Positions 1-8,070 of a stretch of DNA of 64,000 bases are shown in pieces (position 1 is the stretch's first letter; every line of letters starts with the position of its first letter). Source of the stretch: Alphaproteobacteria bacterium (lineage in GTDB: Bacteria > Pseudomonadota > Alphaproteobacteria > Rs-D84 > JAERRO01). A program made the position numbers and the translations under genes. Below the pieces are notes generated by a model that made no database searches, was not told the origin of the DNA, and saw only the letters and a list, made by a program, of their open reading frames with translations. The stretch covers positions 138 through 64,137 of the forward strand of contig JAERRO010000010.1 in assembly GCA_016735395.1 (NCBI GenBank), read 5' to 3'.

Positions 1-118
1 ATCATTTTTTATATTAATTTTTAATCCTTTATCTCCTAACCATAAACATGATAAAACAAGCAATATATCTATAATGCTTAATAATATTTTTCGATTATGT
101 ATTAAAAAACATCTCACT

Positions 119-376
119 CTATTCTTCCATCTTTTTAAATATTTCTTTAGGTCCAGATACTGTTGCGGATAAGTCGAATTCATTTTTATCTTTGTCTATA
201 CTTATATTGATTCGTATACTAACTTGTTTTTTCTCACTACCAGATAAAAAATTAACTGTCTTTAATATTTTATCCCTTAAATTTAAAACACTAAATAAAT
301 TTAATTGGTTGTCTATTTTAGAAGATAATTGATTTTCTTTGTACTCAGTATTATTAATAAAATATTTTATATCCAT
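119..376 (-). CDS. Hypothetical 85-aa protein, last gene of the RM gene string
   Basis: ORF from the six-frame track, co-directional with the methyltransferase gene and 9 nt downstream of it. No recognisable motif. Confidence 0.3.
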   Translation of the reverse strand: MDIKYFINNTEYKENQLSSKIDNQLNLFSVLNLRDKILKTVNFLSGSEKKQVSIRINISIDKDKNEFDLSATVSGPKEIFKKMEE

Positions 377-385
377 TTAATTCTC

Positions 386-1192
386 CTATATTTTTTTTAG
401 TAATAGTATATATTCGTGTTTGAAGATATAGTAATCGCTGTTTAATGCTCTATATCTCCATATTGATTTTTGGTTTTGTTTTGCTCTATTTCCTTCCATA
501 TTTTTTACTATTATACTTTTTAATTGTAAACCTTGTTTTTTAGCTTCTTCCATACAATAAAATCCTAATGGTATCCATTCACTATTAGAATATTTATCTC
601 CTATTACTATACTTACGTATTTATCTTTTTCTAATAGATCTACACAGTTTTTTACTACTTTGCCGAAATCTGAAATAAAAGATTCTAATGTCTTTGAATT
701 GGATAAGTCTTTTTCTTCTTTGCTAAACTTTAGGATATCAAAATATGGTGGATGCAAGATAACATGCTGAACTTTTTCTTTATTATATTTTGTTAAATAT
801 TTTTTGATTTGAATAAATATATTTTTATCTACGCTGTCGCCTTGGATACAATAGGCATAATTGTTTTGACTTTCGTTTACCTTACTTACTTTTAACTTAG
901 TTTTTACAAAATCTACCATTTCTTTCTTGATATCTATTCCTATAAAATTTCTTTTTAAAATTTCACACTCATATGCTGTTGTTCCGCTACCCATAAATGC
1001 ATCTAGTACTATATCATCTTGTTTTGTAAATCTCTTAATCATCTGCCTAGGAATTTGAGGAATAAAATTACCATGATATGACCCATTATGTTTTCCAGTA
1101 TTATCCCTACGATCAATTATCCATAAGGAATTTGTTTCAATATCTTCTAACTCTTTCCATTTGTCTAAATTAAAATCATTGAATTTAGGCAT
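386..1192 (-). CDS. DNA methyltransferase (N6-adenine or N4-cytosine class) of a type II restriction-modification system
   Basis: AdoMet-binding motif I 'LDAFMGSGTT' (FxGxG) followed about 80 aa later by the catalytic motif IV 'ILHPPYFD' ((D/N/S/H)PPY). 268 aa. Co-oriented with an HNH nuclease and a small HTH gene. Confidence 0.75.
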   Translation of the reverse strand: MPKFNDFNLDKWKELEDIETNSLWIIDRRDNTGKHNGSYHGNFIPQIPRQMIKRFTKQDDIVLDAFMGSGTTAYECEILKRNFIGIDIKKEMVDFVKTKLKVSKVNESQNNYAYCIQGDSVDKNIFIQIKKYLTKYNKEKVQHVILHPPYFDILKFSKEEKDLSNSKTLESFISDFGKVVKNCVDLLEKDKYVSIVIGDKYSNSEWIPLGFYCMEEAKKQGLQLKSIIVKNMEGNRAKQNQKSIWRYRALNSDYYIFKHEYILLLKKI

Positions 1193-1364
1193 TCTTTTTC
1201 TCTTCTAATAATTTTAGTGGGTTAACTTTTAGAAAATTAGATAATTTTTCTATATTTACTTTTATAGGAGTGTATCTATTTGATAATATATTTGATAATT
1301 GGTTTTTTGAAATACCTAAGGATTTTGCCAACTCTGTATAATTAGATATTTTTCTTTTTGCCAT
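1185..1364 (-). CDS. Small helix-turn-helix (XRE-like) protein, candidate controller (C-protein) of the RM system; 59 aa, absent from the ORF track
   Basis: Hand translation of the minus strand 1364->1185 gives MAKRKISNYTELAKSLGISKNQLSNILSNRYTPIKVNIEKLSNFLKVNPLKLLEEKKNA*. 'TELAKSLGISKNQLSNILSNR' is a classic HTH. Its stop codon (1187..1185) overlaps codons 2-3 of the methyltransferase (ATG at 1192). Confidence 0.5.
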   Translation of the reverse strand: MAKRKISNYTELAKSLGISKNQLSNILSNRYTPIKVNIEKLSNFLKVNPLKLLEEKKNA

Positions 1365-1430
1365 AATCTCTTGTACTTTATATTTATTAATTACTTCCTT
1401 TATTATTATAAGTCAATATATTTGTTAACT

Positions 1431-2114
1431 TTATACAAATGTATTATTAACTTTTTTGCCTATTATTTTCTTTAGTTCTTTCCTCCATTTATATGGATCA
1501 TACCAAAAACAACCTTCGCAACCATTTATATCATTTTTATCTTTACCTTCCCATTGCTTATTACCTTTATACCAATATTCTATTCCTGGAAAATTACCAC
1601 GATCTTCTGTCTTAAAACACTTTTCGCAATTTCTGGATTTTAATAGATTATTACTTCTATTTAAAAGCATAAATTTTTCTTTTAGTTGATCATCTGTATA
1701 ATTATTAAAATTCTCTTCATTTTTACCCCATCTTATTTGTGGAAATTTATGATCTATTTCTAGCTCTCTATCACTTAATGTTCTAAGAAATATACATTCT
1801 TCATTTTTGTATAATTTTTTTATTTTTTTAGATGTTTTTGTTGAAATATTAAATCTTGCCTTTGTTTGTTCTATTATTTTTAATGATTTTAGTTTTCTAT
1901 GAATAGTTTTTTTGTCACAGTTAGAACAAAATATATTATTATACAAGTTACCTTTTTTATCTTTATCTAGTTGAATACCCTTTTCTTGTCTCCAAACTTG
2001 CCATGTTTTAGCCTGTCCTGACTTTAATTCACATTTAGTGCAATGCCATTTTAAATCTGTCATAACTTTAAAATCTATATAGCTAGTTGTATCTTTTTTG
2101 AAAGGGTTGTTCAT
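1431..2114 (-). CDS. Putative HNH-family restriction endonuclease with flanking Cys4 zinc ribbons
   Basis: 'RELEIDHKFPQIRW...NYTDDQLKEKFMLLNRSNNLLKSRNCEKC' matches the HNH pattern (DH...N...N). There are N-terminal CxxC...CxxC and C-terminal CxxC...CxxC clusters. It sits immediately upstream of the HTH and methyltransferase genes on the same strand. Confidence 0.5.
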   Translation of the reverse strand: MNNPFKKDTTSYIDFKVMTDLKWHCTKCELKSGQAKTWQVWRQEKGIQLDKDKKGNLYNNIFCSNCDKKTIHRKLKSLKIIEQTKARFNISTKTSKKIKKLYKNEECIFLRTLSDRELEIDHKFPQIRWGKNEENFNNYTDDQLKEKFMLLNRSNNLLKSRNCEKCFKTEDRGNFPGIEYWYKGNKQWEGKDKNDINGCEGCFWYDPYKWRKELKKIIGKKVNNTFV

Positions 2115-2212
2115 TATAATTTACCTTTATTGTTTATTTTTCTTAGCTCTTCTTTTCTTTATAAAGTAAGTATATAAATAATTGTTTTTTTAATCAATGT
2201 TTTTTAATTTTG

Positions 2213-2734
2213 TTAATCTATAGTTTTTTCTTGATTTTTTTTGTGTTGTTCTACTTTTATGCCGACTTTTCGTAAAAAGTTGACTCCCGAAAGGTCTCTG
2301 TAAGCATCCATAAAAACTACTTTTGTGATACCCGATTGTATTATAAGTTTAGCACACACTATACAAGGAGATAGTGTAACATACATCGTAGTGCCGTCAG
2401 TTCTAATGCCTTCTTTTGCAGCAAATGTAATCAGATTTTGTTCTGCATGTACAACATATTGATTAGTGATGATGCCTTCTCCACCGCACTCTTTACAAGT
2501 ATTATCTATATTAGGTGAGGTTTTACTAGCCTCCAATGTACTGCCAATTTTACCGCCATTACACTCCGGACATTCCATCTCACAACAATCAGGCTGACCC
2601 GAAATAGTGCCGTTTCGACCTTCGCAAATTACTCTGGAATCTCTCACCAATACCGCACCAACCTTGTGTCTTATACAATGACTCATACTACCCGCAAGTT
2701 TGGCATGTGCCATATAATATTCTTCCTTATCCAT
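2213..2734 (-). CDS. dCMP deaminase (ComEB/deoxycytidylate deaminase family)
   Basis: 'HAEQNLI' zinc/catalytic motif and 'SPCIVCAKLIIQSGITKVVF' (PCxxC). A Cys-rich segment before HAE ('CCEMECPECNGG...CKECGGEG') is consistent with the second, structural zinc site of dCMP deaminases. Confidence 0.7.
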   Translation of the reverse strand: MDKEEYYMAHAKLAGSMSHCIRHKVGAVLVRDSRVICEGRNGTISGQPDCCEMECPECNGGKIGSTLEASKTSPNIDNTCKECGGEGIITNQYVVHAEQNLITFAAKEGIRTDGTTMYVTLSPCIVCAKLIIQSGITKVVFMDAYRDLSGVNFLRKVGIKVEQHKKNQEKTID

Positions 2735-2896
2735 TTTTTGCCTTTTTTATAGTTTTAAGTATACAATCATATAAATGATTATCTCCTAAATCAATAGCAC
2801 TTAATTTTTATGAAATTTTAACCCCACATACTTCTATATAAATATGTAAATATGTCGTTGATTTTTATTTTATTTGTAGTAATATAAACTTATTGT

Positions 2897-2972
2897 TCGG
2901 GTATAGCTCAGTTGGTAGAGCAATTGACTGTTAATCAATTTGTCGCAGGTTCGAGTCCTGCTACCCGAGCCA
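2897..2972 (+). tRNA. tRNA-Asn (anticodon GTT)
   Basis: Hand-folded cloverleaf. Acceptor TCGGGTA/TACCCGA. D-arm GCTC-AGTTGGTA-GAGC. Anticodon stem ATTGA/TCAAT with loop CTGTTAA (anticodon GTT). T-arm GCAGG-TTCGAGT-CCTGC. Discriminator G plus encoded CCA. Confidence 0.85.
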
Positions 2973-3004
2973 GTTTTTTGTGTTTTAGATTAAATGGGGT
3001 AAAG

Positions 3005-3214
3005 ATGGTGTTATCATGGAATGAGATTAAATCAAGGGCTGTGACTTTTCAAAATGAATGGAAAGATGAAAAGCGGGAGCGTGGAGAGAATTTAAATTAT
3101 ATCATAGATAGATTTTGGTGTGGAGGACACTGCTATGCTTTACTAGATATAAAAGAGTGCTTGGACTTTTTGTTTCAGATTTTGAAACGAAATCAAAAAA
3201 ATATTAGTAGATGA
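3005..3214 (+). pseudogene. Possible N-terminal remnant of an MmeI/PglX-type (type IIG/IIL RM or BREX) methyltransferase gene
   Basis: 'MVLSWNEIKSRAVTFQNEWKDEKRERGENLNYIIDRFW' resembles the conserved N-terminus of MmeI/PglX-family enzymes ('LSWNEIR.RA..F..EW.....E.AEAQ.FW..FF'). It is truncated after about 70 aa. This rests on recalled similarity only. The larger ORF 2912..3214 begins inside the tRNA and is an artefact at its 5' end. Confidence 0.25.
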
Positions 3215-3374
3215 TAAATCTCTCCCTATATTAGAACGAAGAAGCTTGCTGAACAAAATTATTGATTCTTTGAACCTGTTCATAGCAAGATTTACCTGAA
3301 GTTTGCTATAACAATATTTTGCTTTTTGACATATGATATGATATCATATACTAATACTTTTAAGGAGTGAAAAA

Positions 3375-5447
3375 ATGAAAGCACAAGAACAAACTTTAAT
3401 CGGGTTTTTACAGGCAAAACAACAATTTGTTATTCCTATTTATCAAAGAAAATATAGCTGGAAAAAAGCTCAATGTGAAAAACTGTGGGAGGATATAAAA
3501 AATTTATCTTCTAATAAAAACATAGAAAGACATTTCGTCGGCTCAATCGTTAGGATTAAAAAAAATCTAGACTCCGCAGAAATTTCTCAACAGACTATCA
3601 TTGACGGACAACAACGGATAACCACAATTATATTGTTAATAGCAGCTATAATTCAAAAAGTAGAAAGTGAAGATCGAAAAGAAGATCTGATCACAACTTA
3701 TCTAATTAATAAGTACGGAAAAGAAGAATTAAAATATAAACTGATTCTGACAAAAGAAGATAAAGAGTCGTTAAAAAATATTATCGATAATATCACTAAC
3801 TCTAAACTAGAATCAACTGCTATCAAAACTAACTTCGAATTCTTTAAAGAAAAAATGAAAAACGAAGATTTCGAAAATATATTAGGGGGAATCTCAAAAC
3901 TAATAATCGTCGATGTATCTCTTGATCAAGCACTAGATAATCCGCAACTAATTTTCGAAAGTTTAAACTCAACAGGGTTAGGATTATCACAAGCTGATTT
4001 GATTAGGAACTATATTTTAATGGGGCTTGACCATAAAAAACAAGAGGAAATATATAATAAATACTGGTCAGTTATGGAAAAAGATTTCGGGGAATACTAT
4101 ACTAAAGAATTTGATGTGTTCGTGCGGGATTATTTAACCCTGAAAAGTGAGTCTAATCAAATTCCTAACATTAAAAATGTGTATGAAACATTTAAACAAT
4201 ATTTTATTAAAAATGGTGGCATCTCAAATATAGAAAGTATAATGGATAATATTTTTAAGTATTCACAATATTATGTTAAAATTAAACTGGGACAAGAAGA
4301 GAATAAAAAATTTAAAAAAGCTTTCGCAGACTTGAAAACATTGAATATTTCTGTCGTAATTCCTTTTTTACTTGAAGTTTATAATGATTATGAAAACTCT
4401 ATTATTGATGAAGAAGAATTTTTAGAAATTCTGTCTATTATTCAAAGCTATGTAGTTAGAAGATCCGTTTGTGGATTGGTAACTAATTCTCTAAATAAAA
4501 CCTTTGCAACTCTATATAAAAAAATTGATAAGGGAGACTATATAAATAGTTTAAAAATCGCTTTTGCTTTTATGAAAAGTTATAAAAGATTTCCTGATAA
4601 TGACGAATTTAAGTCAGAAATAATAAAAAACGATATATATCATACAAACAATTGTGGGTTTTTATTAAGTAGTATTGAAAATTATAATAGGAAAGAAATC
4701 GTTAATTTTATGGGTGATGATTATACAATAGAACATATTTTGCCTCAAAATTCTACACTGTCTGAAGAATGGAAAGAAATGTTAGGCCCCGATTGGGAAG
4801 TAGTCCACGATAAGTATTTACATACTCTAGGAAATTTGACTCTGACTAGGTATAATTCTGAATATAGCGATAAGCCATTTTCTCAAAAGAAAACTATGAC
4901 CGGTGGATTTGATAGCAGTCCATTGAATCTTAATGAAAGTGTTAGAGGGTACAATGTTTGGAACAAATCTTCAATTATAGAAAGGGCAGAAAATCTTTTT
5001 GAAACTATTGTGAAAATATGGGGTAATATTACAATATCAAAAGAGATATTAGAAAAGTATAAGGTTAAAACAGAGCCCAAAATAACATATACTATTGATG
5101 ATCATCCATATCTTTCAGATGGTGAAATGTCTGAGCTTTTTGAAACTCTTAGAAGAAGAATAAAAAATATTAATACCTCTGTTAGTGAAAGTTTTACAAA
5201 GTTATATATCGCTTATAAAGTCGATAATAATTTTGTTTGTATAATTCCTGCAAAAAGCCAATTAAAACTTTATTTAAACTTGGATATTGTCGATATATCT
5301 GATCCTAAAGGACTTTGTAGTGATGTGACTGATAAAGGGCATTGGGGGACTGGTAATACAGAAGTCGTCTTGTCTTCAACTGAACAATTGGACGATGCTA
5401 TGGAACTTATAAAACAATCTTTTGAGAATAATTCTACTGAAGATTAA
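3375..5447 (+). CDS. GmrSD-like type IV (modification-dependent) restriction endonuclease: DUF262 (ParB-like NTPase) plus DUF1524 (His-Me finger) with a C-terminal extension
   Basis: N-terminal 'QRKYSW...IIDGQQRITT' (DGQQR motif of DUF262). 'DYTIEHILPQN' is the H..P..N His-Me/HNH-like motif of DUF1524. 690 aa. There is a putative SD 'aaggagtg' 6 nt before the ATG. Confidence 0.75.
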   Translation: MKAQEQTLIGFLQAKQQFVIPIYQRKYSWKKAQCEKLWEDIKNLSSNKNIERHFVGSIVRIKKNLDSAEISQQTIIDGQQRITTIILLIAAIIQKVESEDRKEDLITTYLINKYGKEELKYKLILTKEDKESLKNIIDNITNSKLESTAIKTNFEFFKEKMKNEDFENILGGISKLIIVDVSLDQALDNPQLIFESLNSTGLGLSQADLIRNYILMGLDHKKQEEIYNKYWSVMEKDFGEYYTKEFDVFVRDYLTLKSESNQIPNIKNVYETFKQYFIKNGGISNIESIMDNIFKYSQYYVKIKLGQEENKKFKKAFADLKTLNISVVIPFLLEVYNDYENSIIDEEEFLEILSIIQSYVVRRSVCGLVTNSLNKTFATLYKKIDKGDYINSLKIAFAFMKSYKRFPDNDEFKSEIIKNDIYHTNNCGFLLSSIENYNRKEIVNFMGDDYTIEHILPQNSTLSEEWKEMLGPDWEVVHDKYLHTLGNLTLTRYNSEYSDKPFSQKKTMTGGFDSSPLNLNESVRGYNVWNKSSIIERAENLFETIVKIWGNITISKEILEKYKVKTEPKITYTIDDHPYLSDGEMSELFETLRRRIKNINTSVSESFTKLYIAYKVDNNFVCIIPAKSQLKLYLNLDIVDISDPKGLCSDVTDKGHWGTGNTEVVLSSTEQLDDAMELIKQSFENNSTED

Positions 5448-5599
5448 GCCGTCGACTCTACAATCTAGATTTTAAAATTTTTAACAAAATCGTTAAAAAA
5501 CTTTTTGTATACGGTGTTTTTTATATCTTTTTGTCTTATCCTTATATATAATTGATATATACCTAGAGTTGTGTTATAATTTGATATCGTTTCTAGTTT

Positions 5600-6736
5600 A
5601 TGATAGCCATTATGTCTAGACATTCTATAGTTTATTTTCAAGGACACTTTTTGTTAGAAATTCTATTTATAATTTTCTCTATCTTACTACTACTGGTCAG
5701 TGCAAATTCGCTGATTTACGGGACCATAAAATTAAGTCAATTCTTGAGAATATCTCCTATATGGACTGCCGTTTCTATCGTAGCATTAGGGACATCTATA
5801 CCCGAAATAGTCATCGGTGTCTCCGCCATAGATAAAGGACTTTACGATGCCTCCGTCAGTGTAGTTCTAGGAAGTAATATCACAAATATTCTGCTAATCA
5901 TAGGTTTGTCAGCCCTGATTTTTCCGTTCAAAATTCCTAGAAAAGAGATTTTTAGAGGAGAAGAATTTGTCGGTAGAAAACAAAAATTTGTTAAAAAGAT
6001 TAACCCTCCGCTTTTTCTAGAAGAAAAAAGGTTCTCTAATTTTGTCAATTTTAATAAAATTAACTCTTTCCTTTATAAAATATTTAAAGGAAAACTCTCT
6101 AGCATTTACATAATTTTGATAACTGCAACGATTACATATTCTCTCTTTTTATTCCATAATAATTTGTCTGTAAGTGCAGGCACAATTTTACTAGTTATAA
6201 TGGGATTTTTTGTATTTTCTACCCTCAATACAATTCAGATCAAAAAGCAAAAACTAAAAAAAGATCCCGTCAAAGATAAGAATAAAACTCTATTATTCTC
6301 AAAGATTAGTTTCAGTATCATCTTCGGATCTATAGGACTATATCTCGGAGGAGAAATTCTAATTCATTCTATTTTAAGGTTAGCAGAAATTTTACAAATC
6401 GCCGAGAGTACCATGATCATATCCGTCGTCGCCATAGGTAGTTCTTTTCCCGAACTATTTTTAGCCTTTAGATCCGTGGCAAAAGGATTCTCTTCCGTCA
6501 TGCTAGGTGCAATTTTAGGAACTAACATAATAAATATCCTCGTTGTAGGAAGTATTACCGCATGGAAAAATATAAATGTAATCTCCGACAAAGTCTCAGT
6601 CGAGTATAATCTATGGATGATCTTTTCTACGGTGTTTATAGGTATCTTGCTTTTCGTTAGACAAAAATTTGGACGAATCGAAGGACTGATTTTATGTTCC
6701 TTATATATTATTTTCTTAACTCGCGCTTTTGTATAA
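5600..6736 (+). CDS. Ca2+/cation antiporter (CaCA/YrbG family) membrane protein
   Basis: Two alpha-repeat signatures, 'ALGTSIPEIVIG' and 'AIGSSFPELFLA', in a multi-TM protein. A long Lys-rich cytoplasmic loop separates the halves. The true start may be an internal Met. Confidence 0.6.
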   Translation: MIAIMSRHSIVYFQGHFLLEILFIIFSILLLLVSANSLIYGTIKLSQFLRISPIWTAVSIVALGTSIPEIVIGVSAIDKGLYDASVSVVLGSNITNILLIIGLSALIFPFKIPRKEIFRGEEFVGRKQKFVKKINPPLFLEEKRFSNFVNFNKINSFLYKIFKGKLSSIYIILITATITYSLFLFHNNLSVSAGTILLVIMGFFVFSTLNTIQIKKQKLKKDPVKDKNKTLLFSKISFSIIFGSIGLYLGGEILIHSILRLAEILQIAESTMIISVVAIGSSFPELFLAFRSVAKGFSSVMLGAILGTNIINILVVGSITAWKNINVISDKVSVEYNLWMIFSTVFIGILLFVRQKFGRIEGLILCSLYIIFLTRAFV

Positions 6737-6774
6737 ATTTGCTTTAAACCTATTTTTCGATTATTATATATAGT

Positions 6775-8070
6775 ATGAAAAGATCTAATTATTTTATAAA
6801 AACATATTTCGACGATCCAGTCGATGAGGTTTCTAAAAATGCAAAACTATTACATAGAGCAGGATTTACAAATAGATTGATGTCAGGAGTCTATTCCTTT
6901 TTACCTTTGGGAGTTAAAGTCCTGTGTAAAATAGAAAATATTGTTCGTAAAGAAATGAATAATCTAGGGGCACAAGAATGTCTGCTTCCAGCTTTGCAAC
7001 CACGACAAATTTGGGATCGGACTAACCGTTGGGAAGAAATGGACGATATACTTTTTAAATTTAAAGGAGCCGGCGATAGAGAATTAACACTAGGACCGAC
7101 ACACGAAGAAGTCGTCACCTCCGTCATCGCCGATATAATTCAATCTCATAAAGATTTGCCTGTTTTAATGTATCAAATTCAAACGAAATTTAGAAATGAA
7201 ACTAGAGCCAAATCAGGTATTTTAAGGGGGCGAGAGTTTAAGATGAAAGATCTATATTCTTTTCACTCTTCTCAAGATGAACTTGACAAGTTCTATAAAA
7301 AAGTCGTCGTGGCATATAAAAATATCTTTGATGAAATTGGGATAGGAAAATCGACATTTTTAACCGTCGCAGACGGAGGAGCCTTCTCTAAAGTTTCTCA
7401 CGAATTTCAAACCGTCACACCCGCAGGAGAAGATAAAATCTATAAAGACGAAAACTCCGGTATCGCTATCAATGAAGAAATTATTGACAACGAAGAAGTA
7501 CTAAAAGAATTTATACCGCACTATAAAATTGGAGATAATAAAAAATATAAATCTGTCAATGCTACCGAAGTCGGAAACATATTTAAACTTTCTACTAAAT
7601 TTTCTAAACCTCTAAAAGGAACTTTCAAAGCTGAAGATGGACAAGAGAAAAACGTTATTATGGGTTGCTATGGAATAGGTATTTCACGATTGATGGGAAC
7701 CGTCGTAGAATGTCTTGCGGACAAAAAAGGGCTGAATTGGCCGTTAAATATTGCTCCGTTTCACATTTATCTGATAGGAATCAATGCCGATGACACCACA
7801 AAAGAAATTTACAACAACCTCATTTCAAATGGAATAGAAGTACTACTTGATGATAGAACCGTCTCTATAGGAAATAAACTTAACGAAGCAGAATTGCTAG
7901 GATTGCCGTTTAGAGTTGTCGTTAGTGAAAAAACTTTGGCAAGAGGAAAGTCCTTCGTAGAAGTGCAAACTAGAGACGATATGAAAATAGAAATTATAGA
8001 AGTAAACACACTAATTAAAAATATAAAAAATAAATTAACTAATGATGAAGGAGATCGTTATGAACTTTAA
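6775..8070 (+). CDS. proS: Prolyl-tRNA synthetase (short form without editing domain)
   Basis: Class II aaRS motifs ('FRNETRAKSGILRGREFKMKDLYSF'), the ProRS-typical 'GCYGIGISR', and a C-terminal anticodon-binding region. 431 aa. Confidence 0.85.
   Translation: MKRSNYFIKTYFDDPVDEVSKNAKLLHRAGFTNRLMSGVYSFLPLGVKVLCKIENIVRKEMNNLGAQECLLPALQPRQIWDRTNRWEEMDDILFKFKGAGDRELTLGPTHEEVVTSVIADIIQSHKDLPVLMYQIQTKFRNETRAKSGILRGREFKMKDLYSFHSSQDELDKFYKKVVVAYKNIFDEIGIGKSTFLTVADGGAFSKVSHEFQTVTPAGEDKIYKDENSGIAINEEIIDNEEVLKEFIPHYKIGDNKKYKSVNATEVGNIFKLSTKFSKPLKGTFKAEDGQEKNVIMGCYGIGISRLMGTVVECLADKKGLNWPLNIAPFHIYLIGINADDTTKEIYNNLISNGIEVLLDDRTVSIGNKLNEAELLGLPFRVVVSEKTLARGKSFVEVQTRDDMKIEIIEVNTLIKNIKNKLTNDEGDRYEL

Follow-up and report, generated by a model that had tools for sequence, protein, structure and literature searches.

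A probable patchwork of defense genes around a native deaminase gene and tRNA-Asn in an AT-rich bacterial contig

RESULTS

The first 5,450 nucleotides of a 64,000-nucleotide stretch of an alphaproteobacterial contig (JAERRO010000010.1; the whole stretch is here called the window) carry restriction-modification (RM) genes, a dCMP deaminase gene, a tRNA-Asn gene, and a GmrSD-type type IV restriction gene, which a sequence-only reading had taken for one composite defense island. We conclude, with a probability of about 0.78, that positions 1 to 5450 are the larger part of a chromosomal defense-gene cluster of ~7.3 kb and that this cluster is a patchwork and not one integrated element. Composition splits the region into two AT-rich blocks around a native deaminase gene and tRNA-Asn. 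Block A (positions 1 to 2114 and a further ~1.8 kb to the left) would be a horizontally mobile cassette of six codirectional genes, and block B (2973 to 5447) would be the remainder of a larger array downstream of the tRNA. Each component comes from a known family, and the mixture of type II and type IV enzymes with type I and type IIL remnants is typical of a defense island or immigration-control region. The features of the two blocks and of the stretch between them are as follows (nt, nucleotides; aa, amino acids; TM, transmembrane; HTH, helix-turn-helix).

1 to 117, minus strand: first 39 codons of orf275, a toxFtsL-like protein with two TM helices, a coiled coil, and a GAF domain; the remainder of the gene lies left of the window
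119 to 376, minus strand: orf85, a small protein without a known family, conserved as the partner that lies upstream of the two-TM GAF protein
386 to 1192, minus strand: type II N6_N4-family DNA methyltransferase, 268 aa
1185 to 1364, minus strand: XRE-family HTH protein, 59 aa
1431 to 2114, minus strand: NlaIII/IceA-family HNH (beta-beta-alpha-Me) type II restriction endonuclease, 227 aa
2213 to 2734, minus strand: single-domain dCMP deaminase, 173 aa
2897 to 2972, plus strand: tRNA-Asn (GTT)
3005 to 3115, plus strand: MmeI-family (type IIL) gene remnant, approximately the first 37 codons; its open frame continues to 3214 across a deletion junction
3184 to 3299, plus strand: 3′ remnant of hsdR (type I restriction), the last 38 codons and the stop codon, 116 nt; the deletion junction is at 3184 to 3189
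3375 to 5447, plus strand: intact GmrSD-family type IV restriction enzyme, 690 aa, with DUF262 NTPase-like, DUF1524 His-Me nuclease, and DUF5655 domains

Composition and extent of the cluster

Composition was compared with a background of the 51 genes from position 5600 onward, for which the mean GC content is 33.3% (standard deviation, 2.4) and the mean GC content at third codon positions (GC3) is 28.6% (standard deviation, 3.4), with a minimum GC3 of 21.4%. The four block A genes at 119 to 2114 have GC contents of 23 to 27% and GC3 values of 16 to 20%, all of them below every background gene, and the two cassette genes that continue left of the window, orf275 and a D12 methyltransferase gene, are equally AT rich (GC3, 14 to 17%). 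All six cassette genes, at 14 to 20% GC3, thus lie below the lowest background value. The GmrSD gene (GC, 28.8%, about −1.9 standard deviations; GC3, 22.1%) falls in the low tail of the background, and the deaminase gene (GC, 38.3%; GC3, 28.2%) shows no downward deviation and is host-like. The accessory character ascribed earlier to the whole of 1 to 5450 is therefore borne out in composition for block A and, at the low tail, for the GmrSD gene, but not for the deaminase gene.

Gene calls were checked by a mechanical listing of open reading frames (ORFs), by ARAGORN, and against three profile libraries. Every gene that the sequence-only reading had named was found at its position and in its family; its list had left out orf85 and the continuation of the cassette left of position 1, which adds the GAF protein and a second methyltransferase. 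The left-hand extension was obtained from exact-protein look-ups, which led to contigs 100% identical to the window. Leftward of the window, orf85 is followed by a 275-aa ORF (orf275) and then by the gene for a 354-aa D12 (Dam-class) methyltransferase (L014 and L015). The D12 gene abuts a convergent gene for a class II (D/K/N-type, lysyl-type) tRNA synthetase, beyond which lie KdsB, HIT, and MnmE, with host-like GC content (L017, from a metagenome-assembled genome). Two proteins of the cluster carry the source name "Alphaproteobacteria bacterium." On the right, the cluster ends at the first of two further genes.

5600 to 6736, plus strand: CaCA antiporter (Na_Ca_ex, 8e-35; NCBIfam calcium/sodium antiporter), the right-hand housekeeping boundary
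6775 to 8070: ProS, followed by TilS, MutL, and RecJ (as the neighbors are listed on L016)

The family matches confirm that CaCA and ProS are the housekeeping genes they had been taken for, and the accessory cluster is thus bounded by housekeeping genes on both sides. The other scanned window proteins with a family match were likewise housekeeping proteins, namely, a class I tRNA synthetase, FtsH, a PAP2-family protein, and an ABC-transporter ATPase. Genes of 1 to 5450 and of the left extension gave no match to integrase or transposase Pfam families, and no insertion sequence was detected at the locus, in agreement with what had been noted before. A search of 1 to 7000 against Rfam at a permissive threshold matched the tRNA alone, and scans for promoters and terminators did not rise above shuffled background in this AT-rich DNA.

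A type II restriction-modification cassette

Block A appears to be laid out as a nuclease gene with an upstream region of its own, followed by tightly packed genes for the HTH protein, the N6_N4 methyltransferase, orf85, the two-TM GAF protein, and the Dam-class methyltransferase. The earlier assignment to a type II RM system was upheld. The nuclease matched PF05315 (ICEA) at 39.4 bits, over the gathering cutoff of 24, and PADLOC REase_II at 4.6e-32, and its translation contains four CxxC motifs, EIDHK at residue 119, and NRSNN at residue 150. The N6_N4 methyltransferase matched PF01555 at 2.7e-28 and PADLOC MTase_II at 3e-97, and its motif I (FMGSGTT, residues about 66 to 72) precedes motif IV, which is a permuted order. 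The best-matching PADLOC methyltransferase model has ~90 extra N-terminal positions that the 268 aa leave uncovered. The separate 59-aa HTH ORF just upstream of the methyltransferase may be a split of a fused form, though it did not match the same model.

The HTH protein matched HTH_19, HTH_26, and HTH_3 at ~1e-7 and had previously been called the controller (C) protein of the system. That call was not supported: the HTH gene sits downstream of the nuclease gene, unlike a C protein, which is encoded upstream of the nuclease and cotranscribed with it; it overlaps the start of the methyltransferase gene by 8 nt; and the match to the Control_protein model is weak (E = 0.0042). The best PADLOC match of the protein is instead the N-terminal HTH of an MTase_II model (2e-9). 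No C-box of the consensus form GACT...AGTC was seen on reading the 66-nt spacer (1365 to 1430) upstream of the HTH gene. On account of its position, its overlap, and its weak Control_protein match, we conclude that the HTH protein is probably a regulator of the downstream operon and not a canonical C protein.

The cassette recurs elsewhere. On an unrelated contig (L041), genes for an ICEA-type nuclease (33% identical to the window nuclease), an N6_N4 methyltransferase (69%), a 94-aa ORF (32% identical to orf85; E = 2e-14), a 280-aa ORF (37%), and a D12 methyltransferase (67%) stand in the same order, and the HTH gene is absent. A sister cassette (L018) has counterparts of the nuclease (orf222, 60% identical), the HTH protein (67%), the N6_N4 methyltransferase (59%), and the D12 methyltransferase (71%), and an AIPR abortive-infection gene fills the slot of orf85 and the GAF protein. 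The closest nonself relatives of the D12 enzyme among those listed are ~70% identical, and the few with a source name span several phyla. In each locus examined (L014:2843-3907, L018:5001-6074, and L019:417-1484), the D12 gene starts 1 to 4 nt after the upstream gene or barely overlaps it, and the upstream gene itself varies, being a two-TM GAF protein gene, an AIPR gene, or an unknown partial ORF. The D12 enzyme thus has the look of a conserved component to which one effector or another can be coupled.

Presumably, the two methyltransferases shield the DNA of the host, and the nuclease would cut incoming DNA that is unmethylated. Judging from the nuclease family, the likely target of the cassette is CATG. 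The closest known systems are NlaIII and HpyI (iceA1-hpyIM), which the cassette resembles in the PF05315 nuclease with its HNH-type motif, Cys4 zinc motifs, and similar length (227 aa) and in the adjacent methyltransferase. The cassette differs from them in having two methyltransferases, the permuted N6_N4 enzyme with an HPPY motif and the D12 enzyme, and in adding a separate HTH gene and a toxin-like gene pair.

Restriction-site counts over the window (1 to 64000) were compared with expectations from a second-order Markov model. CATG, the NlaIII site, was observed 45 times against 115 expected (ratio, 0.39). CCGG, GGCC, and CATG stood at 0.39 to 0.47 of expectation, and GATC, CTAG, and TTAA were at expectation. 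The depletion of CATG lends weak support to a CATG-specific system. The strongest depletion was that of ACGT (3 observed and 112 expected) and GCGC (1 and 22), which suggests strong past or present restriction pressure from other systems in the lineage. No system for ACGT or GCGC was identified, few other window proteins having been scanned against Pfam and none against PADLOC.

The orf85 and GAF protein pair

Between the two methyltransferase genes of the cassette lie orf85 and orf275 (L014:1755-2841). No Pfam, PADLOC, or PHROG match was found for orf85, which is a candidate antitoxin or regulator. The orf275 protein has two N-terminal hydrophobic helices and a GAF fold; a single-sequence AF2 model was uninformative (pLDDT, 45). 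Because orf275 encodes a membrane protein with a GAF domain, we rejected the idea that it is the restriction nuclease that goes with the D12 methyltransferase. A word-based search of 5.8 billion proteins for homologues of orf275 returned only orf275 itself. An exhaustive HMMER search gave a family of 161 library proteins at E ≤ 0.001, query included, of mostly about 260 to 300 aa (among the 150 of the 161 matches listed) and with the conserved motifs DRITLY, RYSxNP, KGCIxKGW, MKSRxYAV, and GVIVxES. The family has no member in Pfam or PADLOC, and the window protein has no PHROG match.

Two members of the family (P0249 and P0268) are directly followed by genes for Panacea (SocA) antitoxin-domain proteins. 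ORFs of 90 to 94 aa precede family members on L042 to L045 and on L053; members preceded in this way lie downstream of type III RM systems in human-gut metagenome contigs (source name, "Acetobacter sp. 46_36"), and another lies on a short contig (L053). Neighbors of the family thus include type II RM systems, here and on L041, as well as type III systems.

A comparison is offered by toxFtsL(D9), a validated 281-aa toxin of Gelidibacter mesophilus that is neutralized by PanA, blocks cell division, and has a GAF domain behind its membrane helices and an FtsL-like helix (Ernits et al. 2023, PMC10440598). The orf275 protein is like it in size (275 versus 281 aa) and in its N-terminal membrane helices, long helix, and GAF domain, and the two family members that immediately precede Panacea-domain proteins match the toxFtsL(D9):PanA arrangement. 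It differs in that the orf275 pair is embedded in an RM cassette. A cluster look-up found no link between the orf275 family and WP_027127282.1, the toxFtsL(D9) sequence. On the strength of architecture and partners, orf275 would be a toxin-like membrane effector and orf85 its alternative partner, and the pair would be a toxin-antitoxin-like passenger that serves the cassette as an abortive-infection backup or as an addiction module. We further propose, tentatively and as a view more doubtful than probable, that the pair is an undescribed Panacea-independent two-gene module of RM operons (type II operons here and on L041 and type III in gut Alphaproteobacteria) that may be an abortive-infection switch forming a second line of defense. 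Its GAF domain would respond to a small molecule or to the condition of the RM system, and division would then be arrested by the membrane toxin after a phage had knocked out restriction.

A probable deletion scar and a type IV enzyme in block B

Block B opens with a gene stub. When the whole PDB was searched, the top hit of the stub was MmeI (5hr4), residues 1 to 38 (E = 0.0017), and tblastn with MmeI residues 1 to 142 gave 41% identity to residues 1 to 37, so that the fragment of an MmeI-like enzyme reported by the sequence-only reading is real. The stub has the characteristic N terminus MxLSWNEI...W of MmeI and BREX PglX. It differs from them in having no nuclease core, methyltransferase, or target-recognition domain, the full fusion being ~900 aa, and it gave no Pfam match and contains no catalytic core. 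A weak second match in frame covers MmeI residues 114 to 140 (E = 0.079), and we claim a remnant for codons 1 to 37 only. Extension of the remnant by frameshifts ("IDFGVED" and "DFETKSKK" in other frames) was unsupported by tblastn. The MmeI-like stub is best described as a pseudogene remnant.

The stub is joined to the tail of a type I restriction gene. The hsdR remnant is preceded by a stop codon, and no hsdR sequence lies upstream of it; the HSDR_N and helicase domains are thus absent in the window. The missing parts are present on L013, a 6.4-kb contig of assembly GCA_022702835.1, in the order hsdS-fic-hsdR-GmrSD and with the exact GmrSD protein. Positions 4091 to 6417 of L013 match 3184 to 5510 of the window, and no other part of it, at 99.96%, with a single mismatch at 3188 beside the junction. 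Upstream on L013 are the end of hsdS (ending in LMQKLLTGKWRV and a stop), a Fic gene (PADLOC SoFic, 1.5e-85), and an intact 933-aa HsdR with HSDR_N, ResIII, and EcoR124_C domains (PADLOC REase_I, 5e-298). The same junction as in the window is found on an independent Logan contig of 66.5 kb (L016), which argues against misassembly. We conclude that the remnant fused to the MmeI-like stub, taken with the intact hsdS-fic-hsdR genes upstream of an identical GmrSD on L013, bears out the earlier suggestion of repeated turnover at the locus. On the simplest account, the type I system and its Fic passenger were lost in a recent deletion that ran from an MmeI-like gene, by then truncated or in decay, into hsdR. 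The undeleted hsdS-fic-hsdR-GmrSD version persists in a related assembly. Separately, the interval between hsdS and fic (L013:125-289) holds about four copies of a ~20- to 25-nt motif (TTAGTCCGTATTATAATAATA and variants), and these copies could be operators, or repeats of an iteron-like kind, that precede the Fic gene.

Some type I RM loci have a toxin or abortive-infection gene embedded in them, for example, EcoprrI with PrrC. The L013 haplotype resembles these loci and immigration-control regions in having Fic between hsdS and hsdR and a type IV enzyme adjacent, and the type II cassette of the window likewise carries a toxin-like passenger. The window differs in that its type I system has been cut to 116 nt and its passenger sits in a type II cassette.

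The GmrSD enzyme downstream of the scar is intact. It matched GmrSD_N (PF03235, 6e-36), GmrSD_C (PF07510, 7e-25), and DUF5655 (2e-12), contains DGQQR at residue 77, EHI at 453, and HTLGN at 483, and matched Orf5 (4e-175), HEC-06, and mREase_IV in PADLOC; its assignment as a GmrSD-type type IV enzyme therefore stands. Full-length homologues with the same three domains and ~44% identity are found on plasmids of cyanobacteria, Escherichia coli, and Sulfitobacter. Like GmrSD, BrxU, and SspE, the window enzyme combines both Pfam domains and the DGQQR and EH...N motifs in a single polypeptide within a defense cluster. It differs in its extra C-terminal DUF5655 and in its distance from solved members (9jfl, E = 6e-9; SspE, N terminus only). 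By family, the enzyme is predicted to attack DNA with modified cytosines, an activity that would be compatible with neighboring adenine methylation if the neighboring enzymes are adenine methylases. Candidate substrates are hmC, glucosyl-hmC, phosphorothioate, and other modifications. The spacer between the hsdR remnant and the GmrSD gene contains, at 3326 to 3348, a TTGACA hexamer and, after it, a perfect palindrome of 12 bp, TATGATATCATA. This stretch is identical in L013 and could serve GmrSD as promoter and operator.

The deaminase gene and tRNA-Asn

The deaminase matched dCMP_cyt_deam_1 (PF00383) at 2.6e-24. The zinc motifs HAE (residues 96 to 98) and PCxxC (123 to 127) can be read in its translation, and it has a CDA fold. 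Its matches in the PDB are ordinary dCMP deaminases, namely, those of cyanophage S-TIM5 (4p9c, 1e-24), phage T4 (1vq2), Streptococcus mutans (2hvv), and human, and its role would be to supply dUMP for thymidylate. An insertion of ~38 residues with CxxC...CxxC (residues 50 to 87; 2474 to 2587 of the window, minus strand) is zinc-ribbon-like and splits the match of the deaminase to ComEB and to the PDB dCMP deaminases in two; PHROG 174 covers the deaminase in one stretch.

The tRNA-Asn gene was called by ARAGORN and matched the Rfam tRNA model at 75.7 bits, and the MmeI-like stub begins 33 nt past its 3′ end. The tRNA is a possible integration site, as yet unproven, for block B only, because the native deaminase gene separates the left block from it.

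Alternative explanations

The sequence-only reading had counted the deaminase as defense cargo, in which case the enzyme would deplete or edit nucleotides as anti-phage dCTP deaminases do and would work with the neighboring systems. Its location between defense genes, its matches to the PADLOC dCTPase model (1e-28) and to the anti-phage dCTP deaminase model NF041025 (85 bits), and its match to PHROG 174, a family of dCMP deaminases from phages (6e-51), would all fit such a role. Only the deaminase domain matches NF041025 and dCTPase, however; its 173 aa lack the N-terminal part of the defense enzymes, whose models run to 437 and 630 positions, the NF041025 score is far below the cutoff of 400, GC and GC3 are host-like, and identity to phage homologues is 40% or less, so that a defense function is highly improbable. 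Given its host-like composition, single domain, ordinary relatives, and sub-cutoff defense score, we conclude that the deaminase gene is a native housekeeping gene of nucleotide metabolism that lies by chance between two accessory blocks. This gene also bears on the proposal that 1 to 5450 is one integrative island targeted to tRNA-Asn, entered as a unit or in series by means of an integrase since lost. The tRNA does stand in the middle of the region with the stub close behind it, and block B is on its 3′ side, the usual insertion side of such islands. Against this, no integrase was found, no second copy of the 25-mer at the tRNA 3′ end occurs in the window with up to 3 mismatches allowed, a general direct-repeat search gave no att-like repeats, a gene of native composition parts the RM cassette from the tRNA, and neither L041 nor L018 has a tRNA gene or integrase among the called genes of its cassette. 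We regard a single tRNA-centered island as quite unlikely and retain the patchwork of two blocks.

Several observations weigh against the patchwork and the interpretations attached to it. Low GC content alone does not prove transfer: the host is AT rich, and a few background genes, several of unknown function, are likewise down at 27 to 29% GC. The AT-rich genes could on these grounds be old residents, their low GC content a product of weak selection in an AT-biased genome and not of horizontal acquisition. We consider that account very unlikely in view of the GC3 of all six cassette genes, which is under the lowest background value, the recurrence of the same cassette order in unrelated contigs at 59 to 71% protein identity, and the difference in the locus between near-identical assemblies. 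The distribution of host relatives points the same way. Pattern scans for ProS in two collections (genome_contigs and metagenome_contigs; loci L001 to L040) gave no homologue above 55% identity, an exact look-up of ProS gave no record, and tblastn of 16 window proteins against the genome_contigs ProS loci gave one nonsyntenic match only. The ProS homologues that carry organism names are mostly from candidate-phyla-radiation genomes, though source records label the host, an uncultured bacterium, an alphaproteobacterium, and the host lineage seems to have no close sequenced relatives in these collections. That no close relative was found in them is a further point to be set against the patchwork. 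A different objection concerns block B, where the hsdS-fic-hsdR-GmrSD genes of L013 could represent a paralogous second locus, whether in this genome or in a different one, the window copy having arisen by duplication or gene conversion of the hsdR tail and GmrSD. L013 ends 63 nt past the GmrSD stop codon, so that the right-hand context is not covered, and it comes from a different assembly than L016. Set against a paralogue are the unbroken course of L016 through the region, which would be unexpected given a 2.3-kb exact repeat in the sample, the occurrence of the exact GmrSD protein on only two contigs, and identity that is complete save for one base at the junction; on either account, the window's hsdR tail is the scar of a rearrangement. 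A paralogous origin is in our judgment unlikely, and an allelic strain variant is favored. The remaining adverse points concern single genes. Motif IV of the N6_N4 methyltransferase is an unusual HPPY (versus [D/N/S]PP[Y/F]), which is kept in the L041 homologue. The usual site of Dam-class enzymes, GATC, shows no depletion (ratio, 0.95), and the ratio is no help in assigning the D12 enzyme. No Panacea gene lies beside orf275, which has an 85-aa ORF upstream instead, and homology of orf275 to toxFtsL(D9) is suggested by architecture and partner and not by sequence comparison.

DISCUSSION

The gene identities, the composition, the conservation of the cassette, the hsdR remnant, and the alternative structure on L013 are all observed; the target sequences, the toxin role, and the direction and mechanism by which the cluster was acquired are inferred. 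Mixtures of RM and type IV enzymes in defense islands are textbook knowledge, to which the locus as such adds little. The deaminase case is a caution that a gene between defense genes need not be cargo. What the locus does provide is a clean, base-resolved instance of defense-gene loss, in which the final 116 nt of hsdR are fused to an MmeI-like stub, with the form that escaped deletion still found in a related assembly. Moreover, a toxFtsL-like membrane GAF protein, or AIPR in the sister cassette, sits between the methyltransferase pair of a mobile type II cassette, an arrangement that hints at a recurrent linkage of RM systems and toxins outside type I systems.

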